Translations under genes and position numbers: made by a program
The notes under the pieces: generated by a model
The model's database searches: none
Told to the model about the DNA's origin: nothing
The model's input: the letters and a program-made list of their open reading frames with translations, nothing else
In this document: one piece after another, positions 32,909-56,220 of the stretch
How the letters are laid out: each line of letters begins with the position of its first letter
Position numbering within the stretch: position 1 is the first letter of the stretch
Source: Erysipelotrichaceae bacterium
GTDB taxonomy: Bacteria > Bacillota_I > Bacilli_A > Erysipelotrichales > Erysipelotrichaceae
Direction of reading: 5' to 3'
Assembly (NCBI GenBank): GCA_003520745.1
Contig: DOUE01000022.1
Coordinates: forward strand, 10,950-68,046
Length of the DNA: 57,097 nucleotides

Positions 32909-33022
32909 TGACATGTAATAATTCGTTATTGTTTCATTGACGAGTACTGTTCTAAACACTCTATCGATCGTTCGTTGAGTTCATCTTTATGTATGTTGAA
33001 CATTTTAAGCATGAAATCATAA

Positions 33023-33913
33023 CTATTTTTTAGGTACGTTTAGCTGTTCCAACAATATCCCGACATTGCTTGGCCGATCCGCAACCAAGGCTCCCGCCTT
33101 CGTCAACGCTTCGATTTTATCTTCCACAGCGCCTTTACCACCTGTGATGATCGCGCCGGCATGACCCATCTTCTGTCCTTTGGGAGCCGTTCTGCCACCG
33201 AGAAATGCGACCAGCGGTTTGGTGAAAACGCCTTTTTCCATCGCTTCCGCAACCTCTTCTTCCATCGTCCCGCCCAGCTCGCCGATGATGACCACGGCTT
33301 CGGTTTGTTCATCCTGCTGGTAATAGGGTAGCATTTCCGCGAATCGGGTTGCGGGAACCGGATCGCCACCGACGCCGATCAGCGTCGAAACGCCGTATCC
33401 TCGTTTTACGATCATCGCGGTAACTTCGTTGGTCAATGAACCGCTACGTGTCATGACACCGATATTGCCGCGCTTATATACGCGTTGGATCCAATAGGGG
33501 AAACTGCCCATCATCGCTTCTTCCGGCGATATGACTCCGGAGGTGTTTCCGCCGATGACCAGTGCATCATGCTCGAGTGCCGCATGGCGTATGGCGACCA
33601 TATCGAAAAGCGGTATGCCGTCAGCCATCGTAACGATCTTCTTGATTCCGTTGGCAAGCGCTTCAAATACGGCGTCCTTCGTGAGTTTCGGGGGGACGAA
33701 AATCATGGATGCATCGACTTCATGATTTCTTAATGCCCGCTCGACCGAATGGTAAACCGGTATATCATGGATGGTTTGACCTTCTTTTGCAGGGGTGACA
33801 CCACAGATGACCTGGGTTCCCAAATCAATCATGTGCTTTGTCCAAAAACTACCCTCCGAGCCGGTGATCCCCTGAACTAAAACACGTGTATTCCGATCGA
33901 TGAAAATACTCAT
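33023..33913 (-). CDS. ADP-forming acyl-CoA ligase, alpha (CoA-binding/phosphohistidine) subunit, SucD-like; predicted sulfoacetate-CoA ligase subunit
   Basis: 296 aa. Motifs: VLVQGITGSEGSFWTK, SGSLTNEV and GHAGAIITGG (catalytic His loop). It overlaps the beta subunit gene by 4 nt. Confidence 0.8.
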   Translation of the reverse strand: MSIFIDRNTRVLVQGITGSEGSFWTKHMIDLGTQVICGVTPAKEGQTIHDIPVYHSVERALRNHEVDASMIFVPPKLTKDAVFEALANGIKKIVTMADGIPLFDMVAIRHAALEHDALVIGGNTSGVISPEEAMMGSFPYWIQRVYKRGNIGVMTRSGSLTNEVTAMIVKRGYGVSTLIGVGGDPVPATRFAEMLPYYQQDEQTEAVVIIGELGGTMEEEVAEAMEKGVFTKPLVAFLGGRTAPKGQKMGHAGAIITGGKGAVEDKIEALTKAGALVADRPSNVGILLEQLNVPKK

Positions 33914-35034
33914 ATCTTCGTCTCCTTCGCTAAGGCAACCGCCAAGCGAACCGCTTCTTCCGTATCAAAAAGTGGATTCAATCCGGCTTTTCGCAGAGTT
34001 TCGACAGCTTCAACTTCATTAGTCCCACGGATACACGTCACGATTGGACGATCCGGTTTTAATTTACCGATGGCTTCAACAATGCCTTGCGCCATCACAT
34101 CGGCACGGGCGATCGTTCCAAAGGTCACGATCAAGATGACTTTCGACGGAACTTTTAAACAGATTTCCATGGCTTTCATCGCTTTTTTATAGTGAGGTCC
34201 GCCAAATTCCAGATAATTCGCGATCGTTCCGCCTTCATAGTGAACCAAGTCGTAAACGGTCGTGGTTAATCCGGCTCCTGCGCACATCAAACTGATGTCG
34301 CCATCAAACTGAATGAACGGTATGCCTTCTTCCGCCGCCAAGCGCTCTGCTTCGTTTTCGATATCCCCCAGCGGAACGGAAATGTCTTCATGTCGAAACA
34401 TGGAGTTGTCATCGATCGAACACTTCCCATCCCCGGCAACCAACTCGTTTGATTTGGTGATGAAAAGCGGATTGATTTCCAATAACTCACAATCATACTG
34501 AACAAACAAACGATACAGTTTAACCAGCAATTGGGTAAATTTCTTTGCGATTTCAGGATCAAAGCCACATTCATACGCGATGTGGTTGGCTTGATATGCT
34601 TGTAACCCGAGGTTCATATCGATTTTTGTCTGAAGGATCTTATGTGGCTGTTCAATGGCCAATGTTTCGATATCGACGCCGCCGGTAGCGCTGACGATGG
34701 ATAGGGCTGATCCGCTGATTGGATCGATCGTAAATGAAGCATAGACTTCATGGGCAATATCCACGGCTTCTTCGATGAGCAAGGATGATATTTTTTGAGG
34801 CAGGGCAAACAGTCGGGTGACTTCTTCCATCCCTTTACCCTCGTTTTTTACAAACTGAATCAATCCGGCTTTGCCGCGTCCGCCACTCAACACCTGAGAT
34901 TTGATGACACAGGGAAACCCGATTTGAGCAAACGCTTCAGACGCCTGATCGACGCGATGAATCAATTGGCTTTTCGGAACAATGATCCCTGCATTTTTAA
35001 ACAGGTCTTTTACTTGATATTCAAAAAGTTTCAT
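33910..35034 (-). CDS. ADP-forming acyl-CoA ligase, beta (ATP-grasp) subunit, SucC-like; predicted sulfoacetate-CoA ligase subunit
   Basis: 374 aa. MKLFEYQVKDLFKNAGIIVPKS and KSQVLSGGRGKAG indicate an ATP-grasp fold. The start overlaps the ALDH stop. Confidence 0.8.
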   Translation of the reverse strand: MKLFEYQVKDLFKNAGIIVPKSQLIHRVDQASEAFAQIGFPCVIKSQVLSGGRGKAGLIQFVKNEGKGMEEVTRLFALPQKISSLLIEEAVDIAHEVYASFTIDPISGSALSIVSATGGVDIETLAIEQPHKILQTKIDMNLGLQAYQANHIAYECGFDPEIAKKFTQLLVKLYRLFVQYDCELLEINPLFITKSNELVAGDGKCSIDDNSMFRHEDISVPLGDIENEAERLAAEEGIPFIQFDGDISLMCAGAGLTTTVYDLVHYEGGTIANYLEFGGPHYKKAMKAMEICLKVPSKVILIVTFGTIARADVMAQGIVEAIGKLKPDRPIVTCIRGTNEVEAVETLRKAGLNPLFDTEEAVRLAVALAKETKI

Positions 35035-36443
35035 CAGCGATCCTTCTTCCCGCTGGCGAAATAGGCTCCGAATATTTCTTCATCACTCGGACGGACGGGC
35101 GGAAAGAACTCGGAAACCCAGGTCGTGTTGATGAAATGCTTGTACGTGATGTTTTCCGAGGTGATGTTTCCACCCCAACTGCCACATCCCAAGGATACGG
35201 TCGATGGCATGCCGTTAAAGAATGCGCCACCGTTCCCTGCGGCTTGCGCCTGATTGACTAGCACCCGGCTGCTACGGATTCTTGAGCCGATGTACTTAAC
35301 ATATTCATCGTTGAAGGTATGTATTCCACAGGAATGTCCGGTACCGTAATTATCGGTTAGTCTTTCGAGAATGCGATACCCTTCTTCAAAGGTTGCGTAC
35401 TTAAAGACCGTCAATACGGGGGACAGTTTTTCTTGGGAGAAAAAGTCGGATTCGATATCTTCCCTACCTTCGACGAGCAAAACTTTCACAGAATCGTCCA
35501 CCGTCAACATGGCTCCTTGAGCAATGGACCGTGCGGATTGAGCGATGATTTTGGGGTTGATCGAGCGATATCCTTTGTCGTTTAAAGGCCACATATACAT
35601 CGATAATTGTTCGCGCATGTCTTCGGAAACTAGGTAGGCACCCAGTGAAATCAACTGTTCGATCATTTGATCATAAATCGACTCATGAATGATGATGGAG
35701 TTTTCACTTGAACACGATGTCGCATGATCAAATGCTTTACTACCCATGATTTTCGTGGCAGCGTCTTTCACATTGGCGTCTTCGGCGACGATGGATACTG
35801 AATTACCGGGTCCGACGCCATAGGCCGGTTTACCGGATGAGTATGCGGCTTTAACCATCGCCCCGCCTCCGGTCGCAAGTACGACATCGACTTGTTTCAT
35901 GAGTTCTTCCGTGACTTCGATGGAGGGTTCATCAATGACTTGGATGAGATCTTCAGGAGCGTTGACCTTGCGAAGTCCGTCCCTCATAAATTGCACGGCC
36001 ATGGCCGTCGCTTTTTTGGATCTCGGATGCGGCGCAAAGATAACGGCGTTTCTACCTTTTAAGATCGTGATCCCATTGCTGGCAGGTGTCGCCGTCGGAT
36101 TGGTTACGGGAGTCAATGCGCCGACAACGCCAACCGGTTTGGCGAATTTCCTGATTTTCTTTACCTCGTCCACTTCAATGCAACCCACGGACTTGGCATG
36201 TTGGACATCTTTTAAAACACCGAGCACTTTGTTTTTGTGTTTAGTGATTTTGTCCTGGACATTCCCCATCTTCGTTTCTTCGACCGCAAGTTTAGCCAGT
36301 ATCTCAATGTTATGATCATTGTATACTTCCCAACCGATCGCTACACAAACTTCATCGATTTGCTCTTGGGTGTAAAACTGGATTTGTTTCTGTGCAGCTT
36401 TCGCCCTCTTTACGTAGGACGACACATACTCTTTCGAACTCAT
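35034..36443 (-). CDS. CoA-acylating aldehyde dehydrogenase (EutE/PduP/SauS-like); predicted sulfoacetaldehyde dehydrogenase (acylating)
   Basis: 469 aa ALDH fold. The short C-terminus and catalytic Cys segment FDHATSCSSENS are typical of acylating ALDHs. It lies directly upstream of the CoA ligase genes. Confidence 0.8.
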   Translation of the reverse strand: MSSKEYVSSYVKRAKAAQKQIQFYTQEQIDEVCVAIGWEVYNDHNIEILAKLAVEETKMGNVQDKITKHKNKVLGVLKDVQHAKSVGCIEVDEVKKIRKFAKPVGVVGALTPVTNPTATPASNGITILKGRNAVIFAPHPRSKKATAMAVQFMRDGLRKVNAPEDLIQVIDEPSIEVTEELMKQVDVVLATGGGAMVKAAYSSGKPAYGVGPGNSVSIVAEDANVKDAATKIMGSKAFDHATSCSSENSIIIHESIYDQMIEQLISLGAYLVSEDMREQLSMYMWPLNDKGYRSINPKIIAQSARSIAQGAMLTVDDSVKVLLVEGREDIESDFFSQEKLSPVLTVFKYATFEEGYRILERLTDNYGTGHSCGIHTFNDEYVKYIGSRIRSSRVLVNQAQAAGNGGAFFNGMPSTVSLGCGSWGGNITSENITYKHFINTTWVSEFFPPVRPSDEEIFGAYFASGKKDR

Positions 36444-36453
36444 ATTTTCTCCT

Positions 36454-37695
36454 TTATTTTATGATGCCTAGCCGGTGAAGCAGTCCTAAGAAAGTGGACA
36501 CGAAGGCTAAGGCAATGAACGCTACGATATACATTTTTTTGAAAAGCTTCTTCTCATCGACTCCTGCGGGTAAACTGCCCAAAGCCAGGGCTCCCATGAC
36601 GGATAGCGGACTCATGGTGGTCATATGCGAGGCGACCGCTATGGTCATCGTCAGGACTGCCGGACTCACCGCAAAGTTCAGACTTTCCGATAAGGCGACC
36701 GTCGTGGGTATCAGCGTCGGCATGACCACGCCGACCGCCGAAGCGAAGGTCGCCATGGTTCCGGAAAGAATCGATATGATGAAAACCGCGGTCTGACCAT
36801 TCGTAATCTTTGCTAGAAAATCGGTCATCATTTGAATGCCGCCGAGTTCACCGACGACACTGATCAAAACGGCTGCTCCGCAAATTTGAAGGATGGTTGT
36901 CCACGGAACGTGTTGAACGGCTTGTTGCTGATTGCCGGCTTTGAGAAAGAAGAGTCCGACTGCGAGGGTAAATCCAGCGAAACCGACGTGGGCTTTCCCG
37001 AAGATGACCCAGAGAATCAAGACCAGAATACTAAGCAATGTCAGTTTTTGCTCATAGGTGAAGGGTAACGGTGGTGAAACCTCCGTTTTCTGACCATTCA
37101 TCTTATAGCCTTTCATCGCGATAAAAAAGAGCGTTGAAAAGATGACGATGCTGATCATGTTTAGCAGGTAGATCGATATTCCGAGTTCTCCCACATTGTT
37201 TAATCGAGCCAGTTCCAAGGCGACGATCCCATTGGGGGCAATGGGGGACAATCCGCCGGCGATGGATCCTTGAATGATCAGGACGCTCATCAACAGTAAA
37301 GACATATTGGATTGATAGGCAATGGCTAACCCAATGGGTAAAAGCAGGGCCGCTGCTGAAATGTTCCCGGGTCCGATGGAAGCAAGTCCCAATGACAGCA
37401 CAAAGAAAATAATCTGGATCTTGATTTTGCTGCCCTTGCTGCGATAGATGATCATGGTTGACAGGTTTTCAAGGGTTCCGTTGATTTTCGCGATACTGAA
37501 AAACAATGTGACTCCTACCGTGGTGAAAAATAGGTTTAGCGGCCAAAATCCAATGATCGTGTTGGGGCTTAATCCACCTAGCGTCGTTCCTAGGAAGAAA
37601 GCAAATACGAGTGCGATAAACCCTACGTTGATATTCGTGGCTATGCCAATGATAATTGCGACTAAAATTGACAGTAGCGATATGATTTCAATCAT
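36454..37695 (-). CDS. Ion-transporter-superfamily anion permease (ArsB/NhaD/DASS-like); candidate sulfoacetate exporter
   Basis: 413 aa, highly hydrophobic with ~11-12 TM segments and an internal two-fold repeat organisation. It is embedded in the SQ operon. Confidence 0.55.
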   Translation of the reverse strand: MIEIISLLSILVAIIIGIATNINVGFIALVFAFFLGTTLGGLSPNTIIGFWPLNLFFTTVGVTLFFSIAKINGTLENLSTMIIYRSKGSKIKIQIIFFVLSLGLASIGPGNISAAALLLPIGLAIAYQSNMSLLLMSVLIIQGSIAGGLSPIAPNGIVALELARLNNVGELGISIYLLNMISIVIFSTLFFIAMKGYKMNGQKTEVSPPLPFTYEQKLTLLSILVLILWVIFGKAHVGFAGFTLAVGLFFLKAGNQQQAVQHVPWTTILQICGAAVLISVVGELGGIQMMTDFLAKITNGQTAVFIISILSGTMATFASAVGVVMPTLIPTTVALSESLNFAVSPAVLTMTIAVASHMTTMSPLSVMGALALGSLPAGVDEKKLFKKMYIVAFIALAFVSTFLGLLHRLGIIK

Positions 37696-37707
37696 ACATG
37701 TTGCTTC

Positions 37708-38190
37708 TTACTGACGATGAAAGCTTTCTTTCTCAATTTTGGCTACGGCTTCCTTGGCCTTAACTAAGTTTTTAGCCCTCCATTCTTCCAGATTTTGGGT
37801 AAATTCGGTATTTAAGAAGGTTTTGGTCATTTCGACACCCATGATCGGCGCAATGATCCATCCACCCATACATAGAATGTTGGCGTCGTTGATGGCACGG
37901 CACTTCTCGGCTGCATATACGGATTCGCAGGCTGCCCCGAAAACACCTTCATGCTTGTTGGCGACGATGGACATGCCCATGCCGGTTCCGCAAATCAGGA
38001 TGCCTCTTGTGTATTCTTTGGATTGAATTTTCAGTGCGCCTTTAAGCGCAACATCGAAGAAAGGCGCAGGTTTTTCTTCATCGGTGGTGCCGATGTCTTC
38101 GACTTCATAGGCTTCGCCAAGTAGATATTGTTTAATGGCTTCTTTCAATGCAAACCCGGATTTGTCTGATCCGATAAAGATTTTTTTCAT
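37708..38190 (-). CDS. RpiB/LacA/LacB-family sugar(-phosphate) isomerase; candidate 4-deoxy-4-sulfoerythrose isomerase
   Basis: Start trimmed to MKKIFIGSDKSGFALK (ATG 38188-38190). Motifs: ILICGTGMGMSIVANK and NILCMGG. Confidence 0.8.
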   Translation of the reverse strand: MKKIFIGSDKSGFALKEAIKQYLLGEAYEVEDIGTTDEEKPAPFFDVALKGALKIQSKEYTRGILICGTGMGMSIVANKHEGVFGAACESVYAAEKCRAINDANILCMGGWIIAPIMGVEMTKTFLNTEFTQNLEEWRAKNLVKAKEAVAKIEKESFHRQ

Positions 38191-38194
38191 ATTA

Positions 38195-39139
38195 CTACCC
38201 TTTTCTTTCGAGAACGCGATGCACGGCATCGACGATGTTATGTGCTTTGAGCCCGAATTTCTCCATTAAGAAGTCTTTCTTGCCGACTTCGCCAAAATGA
38301 TCTTTGGTTCCGACGCGTTCCATGACGACCGGATATTCTTCAACCAGAACTTCGGCGACCGCACTGCCCAACCCGTTGATGATATTATGGTTTTCGGCGG
38401 TAACGATTGCCCGGGTCTTCTTTGCTTCAGCAATAATCGCTTCTCGATCGATCGGCTTTACTGTGTGAATATTGACGACGCTCGCGGATATGCCTTCTTC
38501 GGCTAGGATTTTGCGTGCTTCTAGTGCTTCTACCACCATGATCCCCGTCGCAAAGATACTGACATCGGTTCCTTCTTCGAGTTTGATCGCTTTACCTAAG
38601 GTGAATTGGGTTCCATCTGCGAAGACCGATGGAAATTCCTGGCGAAGAAGTCGGATATATACCGGACCGTAGTGTTCGATGATCTGATCAAACATACCGG
38701 CGAGCTGTACGCCATCGACCGGTTCAAAGATGGTCATGGTCGGAATGGTTCTCATGATCCCGACGTCTTCCAAAGACATGTGCGTACCACCATTTAAGGT
38801 AGCCATGATTCCCGGATCTGATCCCACCATTTTGACATTGAGCTGGGCATAGGCGACCGACAGCATGACTTGGTCGAAACAGCGGCGTGTAGCAAACGGT
38901 GTGAAGGTGTGCGTGAACGGCAGTTTCCCCATGTTGCTTAACCCGGCGGCGACGCCGATCATATTGGCTTCAGCGACACCGACATTGATGGTTCTTTCCG
39001 GGAATACTTCCGCGAAGCCGGTGGTTTTCGCAGCTTTCATCAAGTCAGCTTCAACGATGACCAGATTCGGATGCTTTTTCGCGGCTTCAATCAGTAAATC
39101 TACGTAGATATCTCTTAATTGACGATCATGTAATTTCAT
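38195..39139 (-). CDS. Transketolase, C-terminal (Pyr + C domain) subunit
   Basis: 314 aa. Motifs: FPERTINVGVAEANMIGVAAGL and IFEPVDG. It overlaps the N subunit gene by 4 nt. Confidence 0.9.
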   Translation of the reverse strand: MKLHDRQLRDIYVDLLIEAAKKHPNLVIVEADLMKAAKTTGFAEVFPERTINVGVAEANMIGVAAGLSNMGKLPFTHTFTPFATRRCFDQVMLSVAYAQLNVKMVGSDPGIMATLNGGTHMSLEDVGIMRTIPTMTIFEPVDGVQLAGMFDQIIEHYGPVYIRLLRQEFPSVFADGTQFTLGKAIKLEEGTDVSIFATGIMVVEALEARKILAEEGISASVVNIHTVKPIDREAIIAEAKKTRAIVTAENHNIINGLGSAVAEVLVEEYPVVMERVGTKDHFGEVGKKDFLMEKFGLKAHNIVDAVHRVLERKG

Positions 39140-39954
39140 TTTCTTTCCAACCTCGCAATCGCTTCGTTCGCTTGATCCATCGTTACAGGCATATTGTGTG
39201 AGCCGGCTTGTCCTTCACAGAAGTAAGCGCCTTTTCCTTTTATGGTGTTCAGTATGATCATCGAAGGTTTCCCTTTGACTTCTTTTGCATGATCGATCGC
39301 TTCCGAAATGGCTAGCACATCATGCCCGTCAATGACTTGTACGTGCCAGTTGAATGCTTCCCATTTCTTGTCGAGCGGGGCAACATCGTTGATATCGCAG
39401 ACGGCACCGTCGATTTGTAATTTGTTGTAGTCGGTAAAGGCGATCAACGTGTCCAGTCCGCGACTTCCAGCGAACATGGCGGACTCCCAAATCTGGCCTT
39501 CTTGGCTTTCGCCATCACCGATGATTGCGTAAACCGTTAATAGGGACCCATCCAACTGAGCCGCAGTGACCATGCCTACCGCAGCGGAGAATCCTTGACC
39601 TAAGGACCCGGTGGTCATATCGACGCCGATGGTTTTGTTTTTATCGGTATGACTAGGTAAGTTGGTGTTTGACTGATTCAGTGTCAATAGCAGCGACTTG
39701 TCAAAATACCCCTTGATGGCCAATGTTGCATATACGGCCGGTCCACCATGGCCTTTCGATAAAACAAATCGATCACGGCTCAATAAGCCCGGATTCTTGG
39801 GGTCGATGTTCATTTTTTCAAAATAGAGTACGGCCAAAACATCGGCGATCGACAGGCTTCCGCCGATATGACCGACACCCAACGTACCGATGCACCGCAA
39901 GGTTTCTTGGCGGATTTCTTTCGCCTTTTCTTCTAAATACGCTCTTTTTTCCAT
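39136..39954 (-). CDS. Transketolase, N-terminal (ThDP/PP domain) subunit
   Basis: 272 aa. Motifs: GHIGGSLSIADVLAVLYF, SKGHGGPAVYA and the IIGDGESQEGQIWE ThDP motif (GDG...E). Confidence 0.9.
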   Translation of the reverse strand: MEKRAYLEEKAKEIRQETLRCIGTLGVGHIGGSLSIADVLAVLYFEKMNIDPKNPGLLSRDRFVLSKGHGGPAVYATLAIKGYFDKSLLLTLNQSNTNLPSHTDKNKTIGVDMTTGSLGQGFSAAVGMVTAAQLDGSLLTVYAIIGDGESQEGQIWESAMFAGSRGLDTLIAFTDYNKLQIDGAVCDINDVAPLDKKWEAFNWHVQVIDGHDVLAISEAIDHAKEVKGKPSMIILNTIKGKGAYFCEGQAGSHNMPVTMDQANEAIARLERK

Positions 39955-39965
39955 CTTTCTTCTCC

Positions 39966-41306
39966 TTAGTATTTTACTACTTCACACGCGAATAATTGAG
40001 CCAATACTTCCAATTCTTCTTTGATATCCCCATAAATAACGACGAAGTGTGGTTCCCATCCATCTTGTACCATGTTCGTGATCAGCGGATTCACTTTGGG
40101 TTCCACTTCGACGACGACACTGGTTCCTAAGAATTGTTGGGGCTTGTCCAATACTTTTCCATCGAGGATCAAAAACCTGAATGTCCCATCCGGTTTACGA
40201 CCGATTCGGAAGATTGTGGCTTCTTTACATTCCTTAAGTCCAAACTCCATGGTCGGTCCGATTTTTCGATTGGGATGAACACCCACGGCTGCGCCGGTAT
40301 CTTTTCTAGCCAAACCGCAGGCAGCGGTTCCGCAATGCCAGAACGTAATGGTGTTTTCTTCTTCATCGATCGAGACGGGATCCCCAAGATAGGTTGGCGA
40401 TTTCGAGAGTTGTTGTCCGATATACATACTCAATGCGCCATAAGCGTCGGCTTCACAGGCCGCCGCAACGTTTTGATCGTTGAGCATGGCCAGCACACTG
40501 CATACCGGGGTTCCGTAATCCGTAAAGAAGTCCGGCCAGCATCGCGAAGCTATGGCTTTGATTTGATTTTTATCGATATAGTCTTGATATGCTTTGTACA
40601 GTTTGACAAAGTCGACGCGGTTTTTGGTTACGGTTTTATCCAATCCGACCATTCGCCGACCAATTTCATTTTCTTCGTTTTTTGCATCTTCGATCTTCAT
40701 TTCCTGGGCAATCTTGGTCAGTTCTCGTGATTCAATGGCGAGAAGATTGACACCGAAGGTCGAGGCCATTTCGAGATCCAAAGCACGGCCGAAGCCGAAT
40801 CCCTGCGGGGTGTGTCCAACCATCAGAAGATTCGCGTTTTTCATTTCGTGTTTCAACTTCGCGGCATGAATGATCTTTTTCAGTCTGTTTTGAATGCCAT
40901 CTTCGCTGGGTGAGCCATACATGTAGAAAATTCTGTCTTTTCTCATCGCTTTGTAGGCATACCCTGCCGAGAACGCTCCGGTTAATGAGTTAAGTCTGAG
41001 TCTTCCGCCATCAATGACAGGTTCACGTAACGTCCACAACAAGACTGGCGCAGAGATACGTTTCAATACTTCCGTCGCATATGCAGAGTTGGCAAAGGTT
41101 ACATTCTGTAAAATCACCAAGTCGGGATTCTTCCCATCGATATACTTAAGTAGCGTTTCGATAGACAATAGCATTTCACTGCTGACGGTAATCGTCTCGT
41201 CGATGCTCTTGAGCAAGCTGATTGAATCCTCATATGCTCTTTGGGCGGATTCTAAGTGAAATGTCGGAACACCAATCGGTACATATAGACATTCAAACGG
41301 TTTCAT
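39966..41306 (-). CDS. L-fucose/L-arabinose isomerase-family protein (COG2407-like), role in the SQ operon unassigned
   Basis: 446 aa. Motifs: ASRCWPDFF, AACEADAYGALS, FWHCGTA, GWEPHFVVIYGD. Confidence 0.75.
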   Translation of the reverse strand: MKPFECLYVPIGVPTFHLESAQRAYEDSISLLKSIDETITVSSEMLLSIETLLKYIDGKNPDLVILQNVTFANSAYATEVLKRISAPVLLWTLREPVIDGGRLRLNSLTGAFSAGYAYKAMRKDRIFYMYGSPSEDGIQNRLKKIIHAAKLKHEMKNANLLMVGHTPQGFGFGRALDLEMASTFGVNLLAIESRELTKIAQEMKIEDAKNEENEIGRRMVGLDKTVTKNRVDFVKLYKAYQDYIDKNQIKAIASRCWPDFFTDYGTPVCSVLAMLNDQNVAAACEADAYGALSMYIGQQLSKSPTYLGDPVSIDEEENTITFWHCGTAACGLARKDTGAAVGVHPNRKIGPTMEFGLKECKEATIFRIGRKPDGTFRFLILDGKVLDKPQQFLGTSVVVEVEPKVNPLITNMVQDGWEPHFVVIYGDIKEELEVLAQLFACEVVKY

Positions 41307-41329
41307 ATGTGTCCTGCTTTCTTAAGAAT

Positions 41330-41359
41330 CAGGGTGCTACACACTTGTATAGCACCCTG
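41330..41359 (-). other. Intra-operon stem-loop after the SBP gene (transcript stabiliser or partial terminator)
   Basis: CAGGGTGCTA-10 nt-TAGCACCCTG, a 10-bp stem, followed on the minus strand by ATTCTTAAG. Confidence 0.55.
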
Positions 41360-41366
41360 TGTTGTA

Positions 41367-42575
41367 TTATTTCTTGGCGTCTTTGAGTTTGGTTTCTAGT
41401 TCTTGTAACGCTTCCAACGGCGTTGCTTCTTTAGCGACAGCTTTGCGGATGGCTTCGTTGATCATCGGATACATTCCCGGAACCATGACTTGAGTTAACC
41501 AGTCTTGAACATAGGATGCATCGGTCGCGGCGATTTCATCAAGGAATATGGCATACTCATCTTTGAAATTGCCATAGTCGACTTCTGCGCCTAAACGCGG
41601 TGTCAAGTAAGGAACTCCACCGGTATATCTGTCGTGGTTTTCGCCTTTGGCTAACCAAGTAATGAATTTCTTGGCTTCTTTGGGAGCGTTGGAGTCCATA
41701 AACGCTGCGATGGACTTACCGCCGAGAATGGTCGCGCGGTTTGTTTCTTTCGGCATCGGGACGACCGTCCAGTCAAATGTCAAGTCTTGATAACTGCTGA
41801 CATTCCAGTTGCCTGACATATGGAAGCCGTATGCGCCCGTTCTAAACAAAGAGGCGGCGGTTGTACCGGCATAAACGGCATCGTCAATTAATCCACTTTC
41901 ATAGAAACCGACGAGTTTAGTCAATGCGTCGACAGCTGCGGTTCCAGTCAAATTACTTTCAGTGTACGGTGTTTTCCAGATTTTTGTTCCGTGTTGATAA
42001 ACCATCGGGAAAAAGCGGTGTGCTTGAGGATCGAAGACGCCCGGGAAGTTAACATCGGTACCGACACCGGCACGAAGCTTATTTACTTCGGTCTCGAATT
42101 CGTCCCATGTCCAGACGGCTTCGCCCGGTTTCGGATAGTTTACCCCGTATTTTTCCATCAAATCAACATTGATGAATAATCCGTTGGCCGTAATGTCCAT
42201 GGGTAGTGCAATAACTTCTTCATCATCATTATAGAATAAGTTGGTGAATCCCGCGCTGTCAAAGACACCTTTTAAACTCTGGATTTTTCCTTTGAAGTTA
42301 TTCAAATGTCCTTCGGTGACGCGTGCGAGTGCAGGAGCTTCTCCTCCACTGATCATGGTTGCCAAACGTGCTTCATAATCAGCGTAAGGAATTACGACTA
42401 ATTCGATTTTTACGCCTGTTTTCGTTTCGTATTCTGTAAGCAATGTTTGCATGACCGCACCTTCGGTGCCGTCGCTCCACCACAGCATTTGCAGTTCTTT
42501 AGGTTCTTGCTTAGCGCAAGCACTAAAGCCGGAGATAACGAATAAGACTAAAAGCAGACTAAGTATTCTTTTCAT
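41367..42575 (-). CDS. ABC sugar-binding lipoprotein (CUT1); candidate SQ / sulfoquinovosyl-glycerol binding protein
   Basis: 402 aa with lipobox MKRILSLLLVLFVISGFSAC and an SBP family 1 pattern. Confidence 0.8.
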   Translation of the reverse strand: MKRILSLLLVLFVISGFSACAKQEPKELQMLWWSDGTEGAVMQTLLTEYETKTGVKIELVVIPYADYEARLATMISGGEAPALARVTEGHLNNFKGKIQSLKGVFDSAGFTNLFYNDDEEVIALPMDITANGLFINVDLMEKYGVNYPKPGEAVWTWDEFETEVNKLRAGVGTDVNFPGVFDPQAHRFFPMVYQHGTKIWKTPYTESNLTGTAAVDALTKLVGFYESGLIDDAVYAGTTAASLFRTGAYGFHMSGNWNVSSYQDLTFDWTVVPMPKETNRATILGGKSIAAFMDSNAPKEAKKFITWLAKGENHDRYTGGVPYLTPRLGAEVDYGNFKDEYAIFLDEIAATDASYVQDWLTQVMVPGMYPMINEAIRKAVAKEATPLEALQELETKLKDAKK

Positions 42576-42621
42576 AAAATCCTCCCTTTCTTTATATTAA
42601 TGTTAATTAATACCCGTGTTG

Positions 42622-43437
42622 TTAACCCTTCATCCCGCTATCAACCGTTCCTTGAACGAATTGACGTTGGAAGATCAAGAAGACGATAAGCATCGGAATC
42701 ATGGCTAATGCGCTCATCGCGATGACGGAATTGTAGTCGATCCCGAATTCACCCGAGAAATTGGCGATCGCCAATTGAAGGGTGTATTTTTTCGGCGAGT
42801 TGATCGCGATCAGTGGCCAGACGTAGTCGTTCCAGCGCCACATAAACGAGAAGATGGCGAGGGTGGCGATGGCTGGTTTGGCGTTGGGTAAGATGATGTT
42901 CCAGAAGATCCGCCATTCCGATGCACCGTCGATGCGGGCCGCTTGAATGACTTCATCCGGGATGGTCAACAAGTATTGTCTCATTAAGAATATGCCGGTC
43001 GGTGTTGCGGCCGGGGGGATGATCAAGGCCAATAAAGAGTTGTACAGTCCGAAGAACCGTAAAACCGAGAAGATGGGGACCATGATGACTTCCAGCGGCA
43101 ACATGATGGTTGACAGTATCAACAACATGATGACATTCTCGCCTTTGAAGCGGAATTTGGATAGTGCGTAGCCGGCCATGGTGTTAATGATGACCGCGAT
43201 GATCGTGCTGGATATCGCCACTAGGAAGGTATTGAAGATATACAATGAGAAGTTGCCTTTGCTTAGTGCGATGGTGAAGTTTTCCAGGGTCCAATCTTTG
43301 GGAATAAACGTCGGATTGGCGGAGAACAGCTCGGATGATGGTTTAAAGGCGGAGAAGATGATGTAGATGACCGGAAGTATGAAGATTAAAAGAACCACGA
43401 TCGAGAGGACATAGGTTAAGAGGCTAGCCTTTTTCAT
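42622..43437 (-). CDS. CUT1 ABC sugar permease (MalG-like)
   Basis: 271 aa with EAA loop QAARIDGASEWRIFWNIILP. Confidence 0.85.
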   Translation of the reverse strand: MKKASLLTYVLSIVVLLIFILPVIYIIFSAFKPSSELFSANPTFIPKDWTLENFTIALSKGNFSLYIFNTFLVAISSTIIAVIINTMAGYALSKFRFKGENVIMLLILSTIMLPLEVIMVPIFSVLRFFGLYNSLLALIIPPAATPTGIFLMRQYLLTIPDEVIQAARIDGASEWRIFWNIILPNAKPAIATLAIFSFMWRWNDYVWPLIAINSPKKYTLQLAIANFSGEFGIDYNSVIAMSALAMIPMLIVFLIFQRQFVQGTVDSGMKG

Positions 43438-44336
43438 ACATTCTCCCCTCTTTTCGATAGAAAGAAGTTTGCTGCAGTGAAGATGGTGACGATCAATAAC
43501 ATGACCATGGACATCGCACTGGCAGATCCGACTTGATATTCTTTAAACGCTACTTCATAAACGTATTGAACGGTGAAATACGTGGCACGATGCGGCCCGC
43601 CGCCGGTCAAGGTTACGACCAGCGGATAGACTTTGAAGATTTCCATGGTCGTCAAGATAAATACCATCAGACGTGCCGGTCGAATGGCTGGATAGGTGAT
43701 GTACATGAATTTTTGTAGCTTGCTGGCTCCGTCCATATCGGCGGCTTCGTAGAGGGGTACCGGAATGCTAAGCAGGGCGGCCATAAAGATAATCATGTAG
43801 TAGCCCGCTCTTGACCATACGAGTGCGAAGACGACGGACCACCAGGCAAACGTCGGGTCCGTGAGTGTCTTTAGCGTCTGAATGCCAAGAGACCTTGCGA
43901 TGGCGTTGAAGATACTGAAATTTCCAGCCAATATCCAGTTCCACATAATACCGATGACGATGGCGGATATCATGACCGGCCAGTAATAGACGGCGCGAAA
44001 CAGTCCTTTGGCTTTGAGCGGCTGCACGATGAGTACGGCCATTGTCAAGGATGCCACGTACATGATCGGAACCACGACGATGACAAGCTTGATTGTATTC
44101 ACGAAGGCTTTGACAAAGTATTCGTTGTCGATCAGTTTGACGTAATTTTCCAATCCGATGAAATCGAAGCCGTCGAAGGTGAACAGGGTAACGTCGGTGA
44201 ATGAGTAATACAGTCCGATGAGCGCCGGCACAATGATGAAAATCGAAAATATGAGCAAATTGGGCGCGAGGAACATATAGGGAACAATTTTTTGTTTGAA
44301 TTCCACTCCACGCACTTTTTTCTTCACTTTTGTCAT
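43434..44336 (-). CDS. CUT1 ABC sugar permease (MalF-like)
   Basis: 300 aa with EAA loop YEAADMDGASKLQKFMYITYP. Confidence 0.85.
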   Translation of the reverse strand: MTKVKKKVRGVEFKQKIVPYMFLAPNLLIFSIFIIVPALIGLYYSFTDVTLFTFDGFDFIGLENYVKLIDNEYFVKAFVNTIKLVIVVVPIMYVASLTMAVLIVQPLKAKGLFRAVYYWPVMISAIVIGIMWNWILAGNFSIFNAIARSLGIQTLKTLTDPTFAWWSVVFALVWSRAGYYMIIFMAALLSIPVPLYEAADMDGASKLQKFMYITYPAIRPARLMVFILTTMEIFKVYPLVVTLTGGGPHRATYFTVQYVYEVAFKEYQVGSASAMSMVMLLIVTIFTAANFFLSKRGENV

Positions 44337-44339
44337 CGA

Positions 44340-46358
44340 TTATCCCCCTTTCCCATATTTCTTGTAAATATCTTCGAACAACGTTCGATAGGTCGATTGT
44401 TTCCGGTAGAATACCGGCGGATATCCGATGGGTGCATCCACCGTGATTTCTCCACCATCGAATTCTGCTCCTGTCCATAAGTGAATCCAGGTATCGGAGG
44501 GTAGATAACATGTCTGGGAAAGTTGAGACTCTTTGACGATCGGTTTTACATACAAATCCTGTCCGAAAAGGTATTCGTACTGTAGATCAAACACTTTCTC
44601 GTCTTCCGGATAATGTAAGAACAATGGTCGCTGCAACGGATAGCCAAATTTCGTCGCCTCTTCAACCAATCTCAAGAAATACGGTTTCAAGTCGACTTTG
44701 ATATTCGAGCATCGAGCCATGTGTTTCATGGTATCCACATCGTTGTAAAATTGGAAGTTCTGACTCGGACGGTTTCCTTCGTGGCTTCTCATGTAAGAGG
44801 AGAATATGTTCATTTCACACCAGCGGTCAAACAACTCCTTGGTTCGGATGTTTCCGTGTAAGCTGGTATATCCGCCGATATCGCTGTGTGTATAGGGGTT
44901 TCCGATGATGCCGGTGGAAAGTGCGGATGGAATGACGGAGGCGATTCCGTCATGGGTTTCCCAATTGACGCTTTGATCTCCTGCCCACATCGATGTGCAG
45001 TACTTTTGTGAGCCAAAGCCACCAGCTCGCATAAAGTAGAAGACTTTCCCCAAATTCCCAGATTCCTTAACGGCTTCGTAATTACACTTCGCCCATAATA
45101 CCGGCCAGGCGTTGTGCATGATTTTCGCACTTACACCGTTATGCAGGACACAGTCGATGGGCAAATATTCCCCGAAGTCCGCCATCCAGCCTTTGATGCC
45201 CAAGGACAGAATGTTCTTTTTAATCACATTCTTATACCACTCGAATCCCAGAGGGTTTGTCAGATCGACAATACCGCAATAGAATTCGCCGAAATCTTCG
45301 AGATATGGATTCCCCTCAACATCAAGGGCAAGATATCCAAACGATTTCGCCTCGTTGAACAGCGTTTCGTTTTCCAATAAGAACGGGCAGATATAGGTCA
45401 GAAAGGCGATGTTTTCCTTATTCAGTTCAGCGATCTCATCCTTTAAATTGGGGTAGAGTTTCTCATTGAGCACCCAGTTCCAGTACAATCGCTTTCCAAA
45501 CGTGGTAAAGCGGTGCCCGACCCAGTCTTGAACCCAAAGGCCGTTGACTTTAATCCCATTTTCAAGCGCAAGGTCTTTGTATTTGCGTACGGTTTCCATG
45601 CCACCTTGGACACCTAGGATGATCCCATCGTGCAAGAAGTCAGGTAGCATCGGCGGTCTTCCTGTAAATTCGGTCAGGTCGGTCAAGAGTTCAAGGTAAC
45701 TATCACTGAAATTCAATGTCAGTTCACAGGGAACTTCCCAAAACATTAATTCATGAAAATCCGGTGATCGGAAATCAAACTCGGCATAGGCCGTCGATTC
45801 CACATGCAACCAGTATTTCCGGGTGGATACGAAGGTTGGTTCCGGATAATAGGTCGTGTAGTAGTCCCCACCAGCCTTATCCACTTTATCCGCATAGAAT
45901 GTTGTCAATGAAGATTTATCGCGTCCAACGCCGGGCTCGGAGGTCCAGAGCGGATATTTCCTGTTTCTTAAGTTGAAGTAGGAGGCTTGTTCTCCACACC
46001 CGTATACTTTTTCACCGGCATCTGCTTTCATTCGGATCCAGAAGCGATTGACATCGGTTTTGTTGCATGAGAATTTCATGGTCAACCGTTGACTCACAAT
46101 GAGGAATTCAACGGTAAGAGACTCGCCGTGACTTGAGAAAACACAACTGTTTTCGACGACCTGTGCTTCTGTCAGTGGAATCCGACTCTCTAGTCGGTCT
46201 TCGATTTGATAGTTGCCACGATAACTTTCAATCGTTTCATTTCCCCGCCCAACAAAAACGAACGGATGATCACTTGAATGTTCAAGGATGCACTCATCTT
46301 TGAACATCACTCTCAACCGATCTTTATTTTTCTCAAGTGTTAACATATCTTCCTCCAT
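44340..46358 (-). CDS. yihQ: GH31 sulfoquinovosidase (YihQ family)
   Basis: 672 aa. Long collinear similarity to E. coli YihQ as I remember it: QDWVGHRFTTFGKRLYWNW (KRxxW Arg/Trp sulfonate pocket), GWMADFGEYLP (nucleophile Asp), HNGVSAKIMHNAWPVLWAKCNYEA, MWAGDQSVNW (acid/base Asp), HSDIGGYT (sulfonate Tyr) and SHEGNRP. Confidence 0.85.
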   Translation of the reverse strand: MEEDMLTLEKNKDRLRVMFKDECILEHSSDHPFVFVGRGNETIESYRGNYQIEDRLESRIPLTEAQVVENSCVFSSHGESLTVEFLIVSQRLTMKFSCNKTDVNRFWIRMKADAGEKVYGCGEQASYFNLRNRKYPLWTSEPGVGRDKSSLTTFYADKVDKAGGDYYTTYYPEPTFVSTRKYWLHVESTAYAEFDFRSPDFHELMFWEVPCELTLNFSDSYLELLTDLTEFTGRPPMLPDFLHDGIILGVQGGMETVRKYKDLALENGIKVNGLWVQDWVGHRFTTFGKRLYWNWVLNEKLYPNLKDEIAELNKENIAFLTYICPFLLENETLFNEAKSFGYLALDVEGNPYLEDFGEFYCGIVDLTNPLGFEWYKNVIKKNILSLGIKGWMADFGEYLPIDCVLHNGVSAKIMHNAWPVLWAKCNYEAVKESGNLGKVFYFMRAGGFGSQKYCTSMWAGDQSVNWETHDGIASVIPSALSTGIIGNPYTHSDIGGYTSLHGNIRTKELFDRWCEMNIFSSYMRSHEGNRPSQNFQFYNDVDTMKHMARCSNIKVDLKPYFLRLVEEATKFGYPLQRPLFLHYPEDEKVFDLQYEYLFGQDLYVKPIVKESQLSQTCYLPSDTWIHLWTGAEFDGGEITVDAPIGYPPVFYRKQSTYRTLFEDIYKKYGKGG

Positions 46359-47035
46359 TAATAGTAGATCTCAATGTTTTCCCCATGGATCGCGCTGATT
46401 GCATTGAGTTCAACCATTCGAGTGTTTTCCGGGTGATTTAGCAGCCATTTGTTTGTCTTGAATAGAAACTTGCCATATTTCCCTTGATTGCCTTTGGCAC
46501 TGACAAATTCCATGTTGGTACCATAAGGTAGAATGACCGCGCATTTGAAGCCTGAATCGGTTACTTTACAAGGAGAGAAGTGCAACGTCGTTGAATACAC
46601 TTCGATCGCCGTATTCTGGGGGATATAGAATGCGGTCACTTTGGAGGAGTGAAACGTCGAATCGTCAATATCCTCTATATGCGCAAGCAGTAATACAAGC
46701 GGGGTGACGCACACATTGATTTCGGAACTCTTGTGGAATTCAAGGGCATTGAGTTTGGAGTTGTTCCCGTTGACGTAGCCATATTCTAACGGCACCCTCC
46801 CGAAGGTGTTGTGTATGACGGAGAGATCGGAAACGAGATCCCCCAATTCAGCCCGATGCGGTACATATTCATTGCCCACACTAGGCACAGTTGTGTGTAA
46901 CTCTAAATATCTGATCAAATCACCAAATTCGCTGACGTCCAACACTTCCCCAAATCGACTAAACTCAGGATCGTGTACGGAATGGATTTGGATGTGGGGG
47001 TTCTTGACCCGAAGATTCTCTAGCATTTCATTCAT
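46358..47035 (-). CDS. DUF4867-like cupin protein; candidate sulfoquinovose isomerase (SqvD/SftI type)
   Basis: 225 aa, first gene of the operon. Its stop overlaps the GH31 start (TAATG). The family assignment comes from size, predicted beta-rich composition and context, not from a search. Confidence 0.55.
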   Translation of the reverse strand: MNEMLENLRVKNPHIQIHSVHDPEFSRFGEVLDVSEFGDLIRYLELHTTVPSVGNEYVPHRAELGDLVSDLSVIHNTFGRVPLEYGYVNGNNSKLNALEFHKSSEINVCVTPLVLLLAHIEDIDDSTFHSSKVTAFYIPQNTAIEVYSTTLHFSPCKVTDSGFKCAVILPYGTNMEFVSAKGNQGKYGKFLFKTNKWLLNHPENTRMVELNAISAIHGENIEIYY

Positions 47036-47036
47036 T

Positions 47037-47050
47037 TGTTAGCGCTTACA
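47037..47050 (-). promoter_or_regulatory. cre box 1, between the RBS and ATG of the first SQ operon gene
   Basis: Minus strand TGTAAGCGCTAACA is a perfect match to TGWAANCGNTNWCA and ends 1 nt before the ATG. Confidence 0.7.
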
Positions 47051-47106
47051 TCCTTTCAAAAAAATTTTGGGTTCTTGACCCGAAGACTCTTGTCTATTCA
47101 CTCATC

Positions 47107-47120
47107 TGTTAGCGCTTACA
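47107..47120 (-). promoter_or_regulatory. cre box 2 (duplicated copy) in the SQ operon leader
   Basis: Identical TGTAAGCGCTAACA, 70 nt upstream of box 1. Confidence 0.7.
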
Positions 47121-47219
47121 TTCTTTCCAAAATTTTTTTCGGTCGATTGATTAACAATGATACCGATAAGTTGATGCATGAAGTTGTGAATTTCCTATTA
47201 AACTATTTGTATTAAACTC

Positions 47220-47248
47220 ATTATATATTTTCCTATTCACCGCGTCAA
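47220..47248 (-). promoter_or_regulatory. Strong sigma-A-type promoter of the SQ operon
   Basis: Minus strand TTGACG (47243-47248), a 17-nt spacer, then TATAAT (47220-47225). This implies a ~178-nt leader. Confidence 0.7.
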
Positions 47249-47552
47249 TGAGTTACGAAACGAAAAATTTTCCAAAGTGGTGGTTTACAGTCGATGTATT
47301 CCATTAGAAGAAATAAAAAGCAAGAGACCTGCTATCGTCGTGTCGCGACATTTAGCAAAGAGATCTCCTGCATGTCAAGTACAGTTCAAGAAATGAATTT
47401 ATGTCTCACATTAGTCAATCCTATCATCTCATTGGAGCAACCAAAACACCGTGATCTGCAATAAAAACCACTCGTTTGAAGTCTATCGATGAAACGGAAA
47501 CTCGTGATAGAAGAAGCAATAATAGCTTATGAAATCTTGCACACTTCTTAAA

Positions 47553-49691: not shown

Positions 49692-49714
49692 AGGCTTACC
49701 TTTTTGTCGTTTCT

Positions 49715-49723
49715 ATTATACCA
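49715..49723 (-). promoter_or_regulatory. Extended -10 element upstream of pulA
   Basis: Minus strand TGGTATAAT, ~25 nt upstream of the pulA ATG and just after the glgP terminator. The -35 is weak. Confidence 0.5.
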
Positions 49724-49742
49724 ACAATTCCAGATTTGTGTA

Positions 49743-49772
49743 GAGAAGAAAAAGAGCGGGGTTTCCCGCTCT
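49743..49772 (-). terminator. Rho-independent terminator after glgP
   Basis: Minus strand AGAGCGGG-AAAC-CCCGCTCT followed by TTTTTCTTCTC. The stem overlaps the stop codon. Confidence 0.85.
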
Positions 49773-52173: not shown

Positions 52174-52236
52174 GACGTCCTCCTAAGGATGCGAAATGAT
52201 AATATCAGATATCACAACAAATATCAAACGATAGTT

Positions 52237-54072: not shown

Positions 54073-54095
54073 GTGACCCCCTTGTGGTTAGTTTC

Positions 54096-54124
54096 ATTGT
54101 ACTTGATTCATTCAGCACTGTCAA
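54096..54124 (-). promoter_or_regulatory. Promoter of glgB-glgP
   Basis: Minus strand TTGACA (54119-54124), a 17-nt spacer, then TACAAT (54096-54101). Confidence 0.7.
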
Positions 54125-54140
54125 AAGTGGAATTCCACGG

Positions 54141-54154
54141 AGTAATCGTTTACA
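54141..54154 (-). promoter_or_regulatory. cre box upstream of the glgB -35
   Basis: Minus strand aTGTAAACGATTACT fits WTGNAANCGNWNNCW. It lies 16 nt upstream of the -35 hexamer. Confidence 0.5.
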
Positions 54155-54307
54155 TAAGTGAACCACTCACCCAAAACAGCTCAAATTTACGCATATACAC
54201 ATCCGATTTTTGACATCCCGACCAATAAAAAAATGGCTTCTAAACCATCAATATCACACAAATTCGATTTTATTCTTTTCTATCGTTTCATTTTAAATGC
54301 CAATATC

Positions 54308-54850
54308 CTACGAAAATAGACTCTTAACGTTTCGATCAAGACGAACTGATGTTGCATTGATTAAGAGTTCTTCAACAGAAGAAATCGTCGCTAAAAGGCA
54401 ACTTATAAAGAGCACGATCGACACATCAATCCACAAAAGTAGAATCGGAAGGCTAAAAATCATCATGCCTGTTACTTTGTTTGTATAAGTATGAAGAAAG
54501 CAAATCGTCCGATATTTTAATAGGCCGATTGAAACCGAAACGAGTCGAACGAGAAGTATGACGAGTAACCATGGATACGCCAACTTCGGTACTAGTAGGC
54601 GAGGTAAAATTCTCAATAGTACGATGGTGATTACCATGAAGTCTGCAAAACTATCCAGTTTGGCTCCGATCTCGCTGATAACATTCATTTTCCGTGCAAT
54701 CCATCCATCCAGTACGTCGGTGAATCCGCACACGATGAAAATGAAAGTAAACGGGAATGAAAAAGGGGGGAAGATCAAGAGAAGTAAAGAAAGAAAAATT
54801 CGAATACAAGTCAATGTGTTCGGGATATATTTCCACATGTTCATCACCAT
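54308..54850 (-). CDS. CDP-alcohol phosphatidyltransferase (PgsA-like)
   Basis: 180 aa. DVLDGWIARKMNVISEIGAKLDSFADFMV matches D-G-x2-A-R-x8-G-x3-D-x3-D. It is a polytopic membrane protein. Confidence 0.8.
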   Translation of the reverse strand: MVMNMWKYIPNTLTCIRIFLSLLLLIFPPFSFPFTFIFIVCGFTDVLDGWIARKMNVISEIGAKLDSFADFMVITIVLLRILPRLLVPKLAYPWLLVILLVRLVSVSIGLLKYRTICFLHTYTNKVTGMMIFSLPILLLWIDVSIVLFISCLLATISSVEELLINATSVRLDRNVKSLFS

Positions 54851-54986
54851 CCCACCTAGAGATTTTCAGAGTTTCTTATCAGCTCGTGCAGTGCAATTAG
54901 TAATCACCGATTCTTTTTCAAAGGGAGATCAAAAAATCGATGCTTGTCAAAATGAAAAATTTCGTTTTAGATTTGGATTCAAACAA

Positions 54987-56117: not shown

Positions 56118-56141
56118 CGGTACACCCGCCTTTCAGAAATG

Positions 56142-56150
56142 ATTATACCA
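56142..56150 (-). promoter_or_regulatory. Extended -10 element upstream of the GGDEF gene
   Basis: Minus strand TGGTATAAT, ~25 nt upstream of the GTG start. Confidence 0.4.
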
Positions 56151-56216: not shown

Positions 56217-56220
56217 TTGT

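Follow-up and report, generated by a model that had tools for sequence, protein, structure and literature searches.

A predicted SqvD/SftI-type sulfoquinovose isomerase in a sulfoacetate-type sulfo-TK operon of an Erysipelotrichaceae bacterium

The published SQ isomerase of the sulfo-TK pathway is the FucI-family protein SqvD/SftI (PMC9594981, PMC7491151). Purified recombinant SftI from B. aryabhattai turns 13C6-SQ into sulfofructose (Frommeyer et al. 2020) and interconverts F6P and G6P as a side activity (PMC7491151). Interconversion of SQ and SF is also reported for SqvD, with no SR formation seen (PMC9594981). A role in sulfoglycolysis was assigned to the FucI family in 2020–2021 and has been repeated in later reviews (PMC9594981, PMC12890257, PMC11659671), so that the statement of a first-pass annotation of this DNA, that no FucI-family enzyme was known to have such a role, does not stand. 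SqwI (PF02502) is described as a putative sulfoerythrose isomerase, sulfoerythrose itself isomerising spontaneously, and a putative role in mutarotation or ring opening is given to SqvB (DUF4867) (PMC9594981). The 2025 structures of SqvB/SftX (9GYY, 9GYZ) revealed a cupin metalloprotein whose function was called enigmatic; no activity, mutarotase activity included, was detected on SQ or SF, and SQ clusters without DUF4867 exist (PMC11968277). A sulfoacetate-forming variant of the sulfo-TK pathway, with SqwD and SqwKL, was described from an Acholeplasma sp. by Chu et al. 2023 (PMC12890257, PMC11659671) and is reported from Spirochaetes, Firmicutes and Tenericutes (PMC12890257, PMC11659671, PMC9594981). 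The family, the reaction that it catalyses and this variant of the pathway were all published between 2020 and 2023.

The window analysed here, a stretch of 57,097 nucleotides from an Erysipelotrichaceae bacterium, contains a co-directional string of 13 genes (33023-47035, minus strand) of which the isomerase gene is the sixth. Gene for gene, the operon matches the variant of Chu et al. 2023 as later papers describe it (SqvD, SqwGH, SqwI, SqwD and SqwKL). The order of transcription is DUF4867, YihQ, two permeases, SBP, a hairpin, the isomerase, transketolase N, transketolase C, an RpiB-like protein, a MatC/CitMHS transporter, a SauS-like dehydrogenase, and SucC-like and SucD-like proteins. The features of the operon are as follows.

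47220-47248, minus strand: promoter-like site TTGACG-17-TATAAT ahead of the operon's first gene (11/12 consensus; a consensus match only)
46358-47035, minus strand: sqvB/sftX, DUF4867 cupin, accessory protein (PF16161, 218 bits; PMC11968277, PMC9594981)
44340-46358, minus strand: yihQ-type GH31 sulfoquinovosidase (PRK10426, 928 bits against a cutoff of 553, with GH31 domains)
41367-44336, minus strand: ABC importer as a whole (SBP_bac_1/8 and permease translations; conserved across TK-variant loci)
43434-44336 and 42622-43437, minus strand: ABC permeases (permease translations)
41367-42575, minus strand: SBP (SBP_bac_1/8)
41330-41359, minus strand: intercistronic stem-loop between the SBP gene and sqvD (13-bp perfect stem, no U-tract)
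39966-41306, minus strand: sqvD/sftI orthologue, predicted SQ to SF isomerase of FucI/AraA fold, Mn2+-type (NF048012, fold, ligands, co-occurrence)
38195-39954, minus strand: sqwG/sqwH, predicted split transketolase acting on SF and sulfoerythrulose (Transketolase_N, 181 bits; Transket_pyr and Transketolase_C)
37708-38229, minus strand: sqwI, RpiB/LacAB-family putative sulfoerythrose isomerase (PF02502, 144 bits; role per PMC9594981)
36454-37695, minus strand: MatC_N/CitMHS-family transporter, candidate sulfoacetate exporter (Pfam; 28 TK-variant loci)
35034-36443, minus strand: sqwD-type CoA-acylating sulfoacetaldehyde dehydrogenase (NF047625 SauS, 515 bits, full length)
33023-35034, minus strand: sqwKL-type ADP-forming sulfoacetate-CoA ligase (SucC-like 33910-35034, SucD-like 33023-33913)
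32834-32863, minus strand: terminator-like hairpin following the operon's last gene (12-bp stem and T-rich tail; a consensus match only)

The two sqwKL genes scored 310 bits (beta) and 329 bits (alpha) against succinate-CoA ligase models, both slightly under the equivalog cutoffs, and contain ATP-grasp_2, CoA_binding and Ligase_CoA domains. In the sqwI reading frame the PF02502 alignment begins at residue 17; the true start is likely to be 38190, the end that had been given earlier for the RpiB-like protein (37708-38190), and both this protein and the DUF4867-like one at 46358-47035 were borne out by their profile scores. The operon contains neither an ABC ATPase gene nor an Fe-ADH of the SqwF type. 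Profile and domain annotation found no YihR-type aldose 1-epimerase gene anywhere in the window, and none of the kinases, aldolases or epimerases that accompany such isomerases in fucose or arabinose catabolism turned up in the window.

The isomerase open reading frame starts with ATG at 41306, preceded at 5 nt by an AGGA ribosome-binding site, and its translation has 446 residues. Its upstream neighbour is the SBP gene and its downstream neighbours are the split transketolase genes (39136-39954 and 38195-39139), the first of which lies 11 nt away. The first-pass annotation had described a 446-residue FucI/AraA-family protein with four motifs, and all four are present (RCWPDF at residue 255, CEADAYGA at 284, WHCG at 323 and GWEPH at 416), on the minus strand, which it did not give. 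Its placement of the gene between the SBP and transketolase genes, after a hairpin, likewise agrees with the coordinates and with folding. That hairpin begins 8 nt past the SBP stop codon, has a folding energy of −23.6 kcal/mol (z = −5.9; 0/200 shuffles fold as well) and is followed by no U-tract. All TK-variant loci have a strong stem-loop at this position, and in three of them (L002, L003 and L008) base changes preserve the pairing. The stem-loop might mark the boundary of two transcription units, but we think this unlikely: a U-tract is missing, only short distances separate the genes, and every related operon keeps the same layout.

We next consider the family to which the protein belongs. 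Its sole NCBIfam match is NF048012, 'sulfoquinovose isomerase SftI' (E 3.7e-121, 405 bits), aligned almost end to end (residues 6-444 against profile positions 4-441 of 443, with 438/443 positions covered), and no FucI or AraA model of NCBIfam matched at E ≤ 0.01. The Pfam Fucose_iso_C match, at 25.1 bits, stays below the gathering score of 29.3. The NF048012 score is below the equivalog cutoff of 700 bits. This might be taken as a sign of diverged function, a reading made unlikely by homologues in canonical clusters that score no higher: the 8 homologues from other species that were scored, clostridial, Lachnospiraceae and Tenericutes proteins alike, fall at 400-430 bits, among them those of the Roseburia lenta locus L050 (canonical sulfo-TAL) and of L067 (canonical isethionate-type sulfo-TK). 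Clostridial-type SQ isomerases are ~65% identical to SqvD of Clostridium sp. MSTE9 and ~32% identical to SftI of Bacillus aryabhattai (PMC11659671). Given these scores and the distance to the Bacillus enzyme, the sequences suggest that the 700-bit cutoff reflects a narrow, Bacillus-centred model, narrower than the functional family.

A phmmer search of the PDB sequences returned no match at E ≤ 1, and we therefore turned to a fold search. An AlphaFold (AF2) model built on 24 homologues (pLDDT 82.9, pTM 0.86) was matched by Foldseek to L-arabinose isomerases with TM 0.78-0.81 (E ~5e-22) and to L-fucose isomerases with TM ~0.72 (E ~6e-14), so that the predicted fold agrees with the FucI/AraA family named earlier. 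The top 41 PDB matches of the model are all AraA, FucI or D-arabinose isomerase. Neither the phmmer search of PDB sequences nor the fold search found a structure of SqvD/SftI itself.

The published metal ligands of these isomerases are E306/E333/H350/H450 in E. coli AraA and E337/D361/H528 in E. coli FucI; the E. coli K-12 sequences were checked and carry these residues at these positions. With hhalign, the family alignment matched the single E. coli AraA sequence over a part only and in no meaningful way (probability 0.2), and hmmsearch of the family profile against AraA and FucI gave fragments only, so the ligands were mapped by unsupervised MAFFT and motif context, that is, by sequence alignment at 11-15% identity rather than by structural superposition. 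In this alignment E285 shares a column with AraA E306 and FucI E337, H420 with AraA H450 and FucI H528, and D287 with the Asp that is conserved in the E-x-D motif. D309 occupies the column of FucI D361, one column off AraA E333, and H324 lies one column away from AraA H350. None of these five residues varies among the 24 sequences of the family alignment, nor do R102, R174, R255, R347, R367 and K388, which are candidates for sulfonate binding. As judged from the aligned sequences, the isomerase keeps the FucI/AraA-type Mn2+ ligands E285, D309, H324 and H420. An AlphaFold model of SqvD led the pathway review to the same conclusion on its metal site (PMC9594981).

The first-pass annotation had proposed checking co-occurrence with SQ clusters, and the check reveals a near-total association. 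That the isomerase gene is genuine is borne out by its 3778 homologues, the closest at 98% identity. A scan with one genome per species gave 486 confirmed relatives, of which the best 80 (57-97% identity) were analysed by taking each locus plus as much as 10 kb of flanking sequence and running tblastn with the operon proteins and sulfo-TAL markers. The closest relatives among these best 80 are MAGs of Erysipelotrichaceae/Erysipelotrichales, up to 97% identical. At least one SQ marker accompanies the isomerase in 76/80 loci, and in the other 4 the isomerase gene lies within ~1.2 kb of a contig end. Where at least 8 kb was available on both sides (35 of the best 80 loci), YihQ was found in 32/35, DUF4867 in 28/35 and a transketolase or transaldolase in 31/35. 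Across the best 80 of the 486, transketolase was present in 35 loci, transaldolase in 26 and both in 1; the combination of transketolase and a SauS-like protein occurred in 27 of the 80, and an SLA reductase homologue in 26/27 transaldolase loci. The RpiB-like SqwI co-occurs strictly with transketolase in these best 80 loci, and DUF4867 is absent from some SQ clusters (L023, L028 and L047). Two homologues of 59% identity illustrate the contexts: the Roseburia lenta locus carries GH31, transaldolase, SLA reductase, DUF4867 and TauE, and L067 carries SqvD, Fe-ADH, TK-N, TK-C and RpiB.

Homologues of 29-31% identity are also found on plasmids of Zymomonas mobilis and Chlorohelix. Their annotated neighbours are a class II FBP aldolase or PPi-PFK, an aldose epimerase, a Gfo/Idh/MocA oxidoreductase and an SSADH-like dehydrogenase and, going by annotation only, these neighbourhoods probably resemble hybrid sulfo-EMP2 clusters.

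We put the probability at about 0.9 that 39966-41306 encodes an SqvD/SftI-type SQ isomerase, an Mn2+-type enzyme with the AraA/FucI fold that would convert SQ to SF. The present analysis supplies the gene, fold, ligand conservation, family match and genomic association; catalysis comes from the literature on homologues, from which we infer the activity of the window protein. In the pathway so reconstructed, SQ (6-deoxy-6-sulfoglucose), once freed from glycosides by YihQ, would be taken up through the ABC importer, and SqvD would convert it to SF (6-deoxy-6-sulfofructose). The split transketolase SqwGH would then take C1-C2 off SF to leave sulfoerythrose, which the RpiB-like SqwI would isomerise to sulfoerythrulose, and a second cleavage by SqwGH would yield sulfoacetaldehyde. 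Oxidation by SqwD would give sulfoacetyl-CoA, from which SqwKL would form sulfoacetate and ATP, with export of sulfoacetate probably via the MatC-like carrier. Because the fold and ligands are conserved with FucI and AraA, the chemistry of SqvD can be proposed by analogy: O1 and O2 of open-chain SQ would bind the metal held by E285, D309, H324 and H420, and proton transfer between C2 and C1 via a metal-bound ene-diol(ate) would produce SF. This ene-diol(ate) scheme has already been proposed for SqvD (PMC9594981). The operon contains two isomerases, SqvD and SqwI, and one accessory protein, SqvB; nothing is surplus.

This reading departs from the first-pass annotation, which had presented the protein as a surplus third isomerase. 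That label falls, since SqvD is the published SQ isomerase and the DUF4867 protein corresponds to SqvB/SftX, for which activity on SQ or SF was not detected (PMC9594981, PMC11968277). One of the roles it had offered was 'alternative or true SQ isomerase', and here it is the 'true SQ isomerase' half that survives, upheld by the SftI match and the SQ clusters. The DUF4867 protein had in turn been named as a plausible SQ isomerase, which would leave the FucI-like protein as a plain L-fucose, L-arabinose or D-arabinose isomerase located by chance in an SQ operon. The label 'fucose isomerase' on its close homologues in public annotation would fit this, as would the metal-binding cupin fold of DUF4867, which is shared with some sugar isomerases (PMC11968277). 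We nevertheless consider it very improbable: recombinant SftI needs no partner to form SF, while no activity on SQ or SF was seen with SftX (PMC7491151, PMC11968277), and some SQ clusters, here and in the literature (PMC11968277), dispense with DUF4867. Moreover, the protein lacks a FucI or AraA match in NCBIfam, is only 11-16% identical to structurally characterised AraA and FucI proteins, has no gene for fuculokinase, fuculose-phosphate aldolase or ribulokinase in its vicinity and belongs to a family associated with SQ genes almost without exception over 80 species.

A further option had been that the isomerase stands in for an absent SQ mutarotase, interconverting anomers rather than aldose and ketose. 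The window has no YihR-type gene, as this idea would expect, but the protein has the fold and conserved Glu/Asp/His metal site of an aldose-ketose isomerase, and SF would have no producer in the operon if SqvD were taken away. The literature in any case sees DUF4867/SqvB, which the operon includes, as the putative mutarotase or ring-opening factor (PMC9594981), and we find this option scarcely credible. Action on an additional or different sulfosugar, whether sulfoerythrose or an epimer of SQ (sulfofucose or sulforhamnose, for example), is also quite unlikely. It draws on the facts that the spontaneous isomerisation of sulfoerythrose has kept SqwI activity from direct measurement (PMC9594981) and that SftI is somewhat promiscuous, acting on F6P/G6P (PMC7491151). 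However, members of the same family at 57-60% identity serve sulfo-TAL clusters, in which no sulfoerythrose arises, and sulfoerythrose is for this reason disfavoured as a second substrate; SqwI, for its part, is strictly tied to transketolase across loci. The idea of a second sugar, raised in the first-pass annotation, fares no better, as SQ and SF are the only intermediates common to the kinds of cluster that house its relatives (sulfo-TAL, sulfo-TK and probably sulfo-EMP2), no formation of SR by SqvD was seen (PMC9594981) and the operon holds no hint of another sugar. It is unlikely, too, that in the Erysipelotrichaceae/Acholeplasmatales clade SqvD works as an obligate pair with SqvB, which would deliver open-chain SQ, or that it has a second activity, on sulfoerythrose/sulfoerythrulose or G6P/F6P. 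Either would revise the accepted assignment of enzymes to steps in the sulfo-TK pathway. The sequence data contain no specific pointer to such a pairing or second activity.

The value of the SqvD assignment is corrective: the SQ isomerase step belongs to SqvD, it is DUF4867 that has no assigned step, and there is no surplus enzyme. Public annotation is behind the literature here. The 700-bit SftI cutoff leaves out the clostridial/Tenericutes/Erysipelotrichaceae clade, whose members score 400-430 bits, and their genes are therefore deposited as 'fucose isomerase' or 'hypothetical', labels that make them look novel from raw sequence.

Four known enzymes provide the closest comparisons. YihS, the SQ isomerase of the E. 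coli sulfo-EMP pathway, catalyses the same reaction, SQ to SF, but has an N-acylglucosamine 2-epimerase fold, is metal-independent and also forms sulforhamnose; it is a non-orthologous isozyme (PMC9594981). FucI (E. coli 1FUI) belongs to the same superfamily, as reflected in the weak Fucose_iso_C match and in the alignment of E337/D361/H528 with E285/D309/H420, but it is a protein of 591 residues with an extra N-terminal domain, and the match (TM ~0.72, or 0.56 on target length) comes with 11-14% identity. AraA (E. coli 4F2D/2AJT, G. kaustophilus 4R1O) is the best structural match, and the E/E(D)/H/H metal site is kept, with the AraA-type fourth ligand His being H324 in the isomerase. Relative to AraA, the isomerase is ~50 residues shorter, lacks araB/araD neighbours and has a predicted substrate with a C6 sulfonate. 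The nearest counterparts are the SqvD/SftI proteins (PF02952) of Bacillus/Priestia aryabhattai SOS1, B. megaterium, Clostridium sp. MSTE9 and Acholeplasma sp., which have the same length (~445 residues). The window protein, from an uncultured Erysipelotrichaceae-like lineage, is ~58-65% identical to homologues in Clostridia and Acholeplasma clusters and, judging from its 405-bit score and published identities (PMC11659671), probably ~30-35% identical to Bacillus SftI. It aligns with the SftI HMM from end to end, at a score under the equivalog cutoff, and shares with the SqvD/SftI enzymes the fold family, the metal ligands, and the partners YihQ, DUF4867, SF-cleaving transketolase, SqwI, SqwD and SqwKL.

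The SQ operon differs in base composition from the DNA in which it lies. Its GC content is 44-49%, compared with 51-53% for the flanking glycogen/maltodextrin genes (window positions 33000-48000 versus flanks), and its proteins are 60-80% identical to counterparts in low-GC Acholeplasmataceae and Izemoplasmatales. Together, these sequence features suggest that the entire operon was gained by horizontal transfer. Its surroundings (1-33000 and 47500-57097) belong to storage-glucan metabolism: among other genes, one flank includes tpiA, pgk, glgA, glgC/D, several GH13 amylases, a maltodextrin ABC system and neopullulanase, and the opposite flank pullulanase, glycogen phosphorylase, branching enzyme and phosphoglucomutase. 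NCBIfam gives no match for ORFs 9655-10875 and 10868-12289, nor does Pfam for ORF 18292-19014. No transcriptional regulator is encoded within or adjoining the SQ operon.

Within the operon, the first-pass annotation had started the RpiB-like gene at 38190, and this start is favoured here. The longest ORF (37708-38229, minus strand) shares 35 nt with the transketolase C-terminal gene, and its Pfam alignment begins at residue 17. The internal ATG at 38190 (MKKIFIG...) is the more likely start.

The transport genes considered for SQ uptake and possible sulfoacetate release are as follows.

41367-44336, SQ ABC importer: SBP and two permeases
21216-22307, MalK/MsmX-type ATPase with an OB_MalK domain, in the maltodextrin cluster 20 kb from the SQ importer genes
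13357-14922, MglA-type, the remaining ABC ATPase identified in the window
36454-37695, minus strand, MatC_N/CitMHS-family transporter

An ATPase gene is absent from the importer set (41367-44336), and the SQ importer may share the MalK/MsmX-type ATPase with the maltodextrin cluster. The MatC_N/CitMHS-family transporter is kept among the sulfoacetate-variant loci (n=28). MatC is a malonate carrier and sulfoacetate is a sulfonate analogue of malonate; by this analogy, the transporter is a chemically sensible candidate for the sulfoacetate exporter.

The intergenic region between the SBP gene and sqvD, the SQ isomerase gene, contains the following element.

41330-41359, minus strand, stem-loop directly 3' of the SBP gene

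A strong stem-loop at this position is common to all sulfoacetate-type sulfo-TK loci (intergenic regions of sqvD-homologue loci L001-L031 and L047, and of the window). In the close relatives L002, L003 and L008 bases in the stem have changed with pairing preserved, and in distant relatives, where the sequence differs, a hairpin persists at -15 to -40 kcal/mol. The stem-loop is probably an mRNA-stabilizing or decay-barrier element that boosts expression of the SBP relative to downstream genes.

The equivalog cut-off of the curated NCBIfam SftI model NF048012 is 700 bits, whereas the window protein and its homologues at L024, L031, L037, L042, L046, L050, L061 and L067 score 400-430 bits. The cut-off leaves out the whole clostridial/Lachnospiraceae/Tenericutes/Erysipelotrichaceae SQ-isomerase clade, which is why its members appear in public records as 'fucose isomerase', 'L-fucose isomerase-like' or 'hypothetical'.

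Some homologue loci may represent other types of SQ cluster. Two, on plasmids of Ca. Chlorohelix allophototropha (L084) and Zymomonas mobilis ZM4 (L085; pZZM402, 128-11361), encode proteins 29-31% identical to the window protein. Their annotated neighbours comprise a class II FBP aldolase or PPi-phosphofructokinase, an aldose epimerase, a Gfo/Idh/MocA oxidoreductase (the family that includes NAD+-dependent sulfoquinovosidases) and an SSADH-like dehydrogenase, with annotated sulfite reductase and siroheme synthesis genes additionally present in Chlorohelix. Both look like unannotated plasmid-borne hybrid SQ clusters of sulfo-EMP2 type. Elsewhere (L036, L042, L046, L070, L072 and about 12 others), the isomerase occurs with YihQ and/or DUF4867, and both TK and TAL are absent within the available sequence; these may represent clusters of the sulfo-EMP2 type, with a kinase and a class II aldolase. 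Finally, in an uncultured Clostridia locus (L067:11365-16588), two transaldolase-family genes accompany SqvD, Fe-ADH, RpiB and the split transketolase, a set resembling the bifurcated TK/TAL pathway described in Faecalicatena (PMC11659671).
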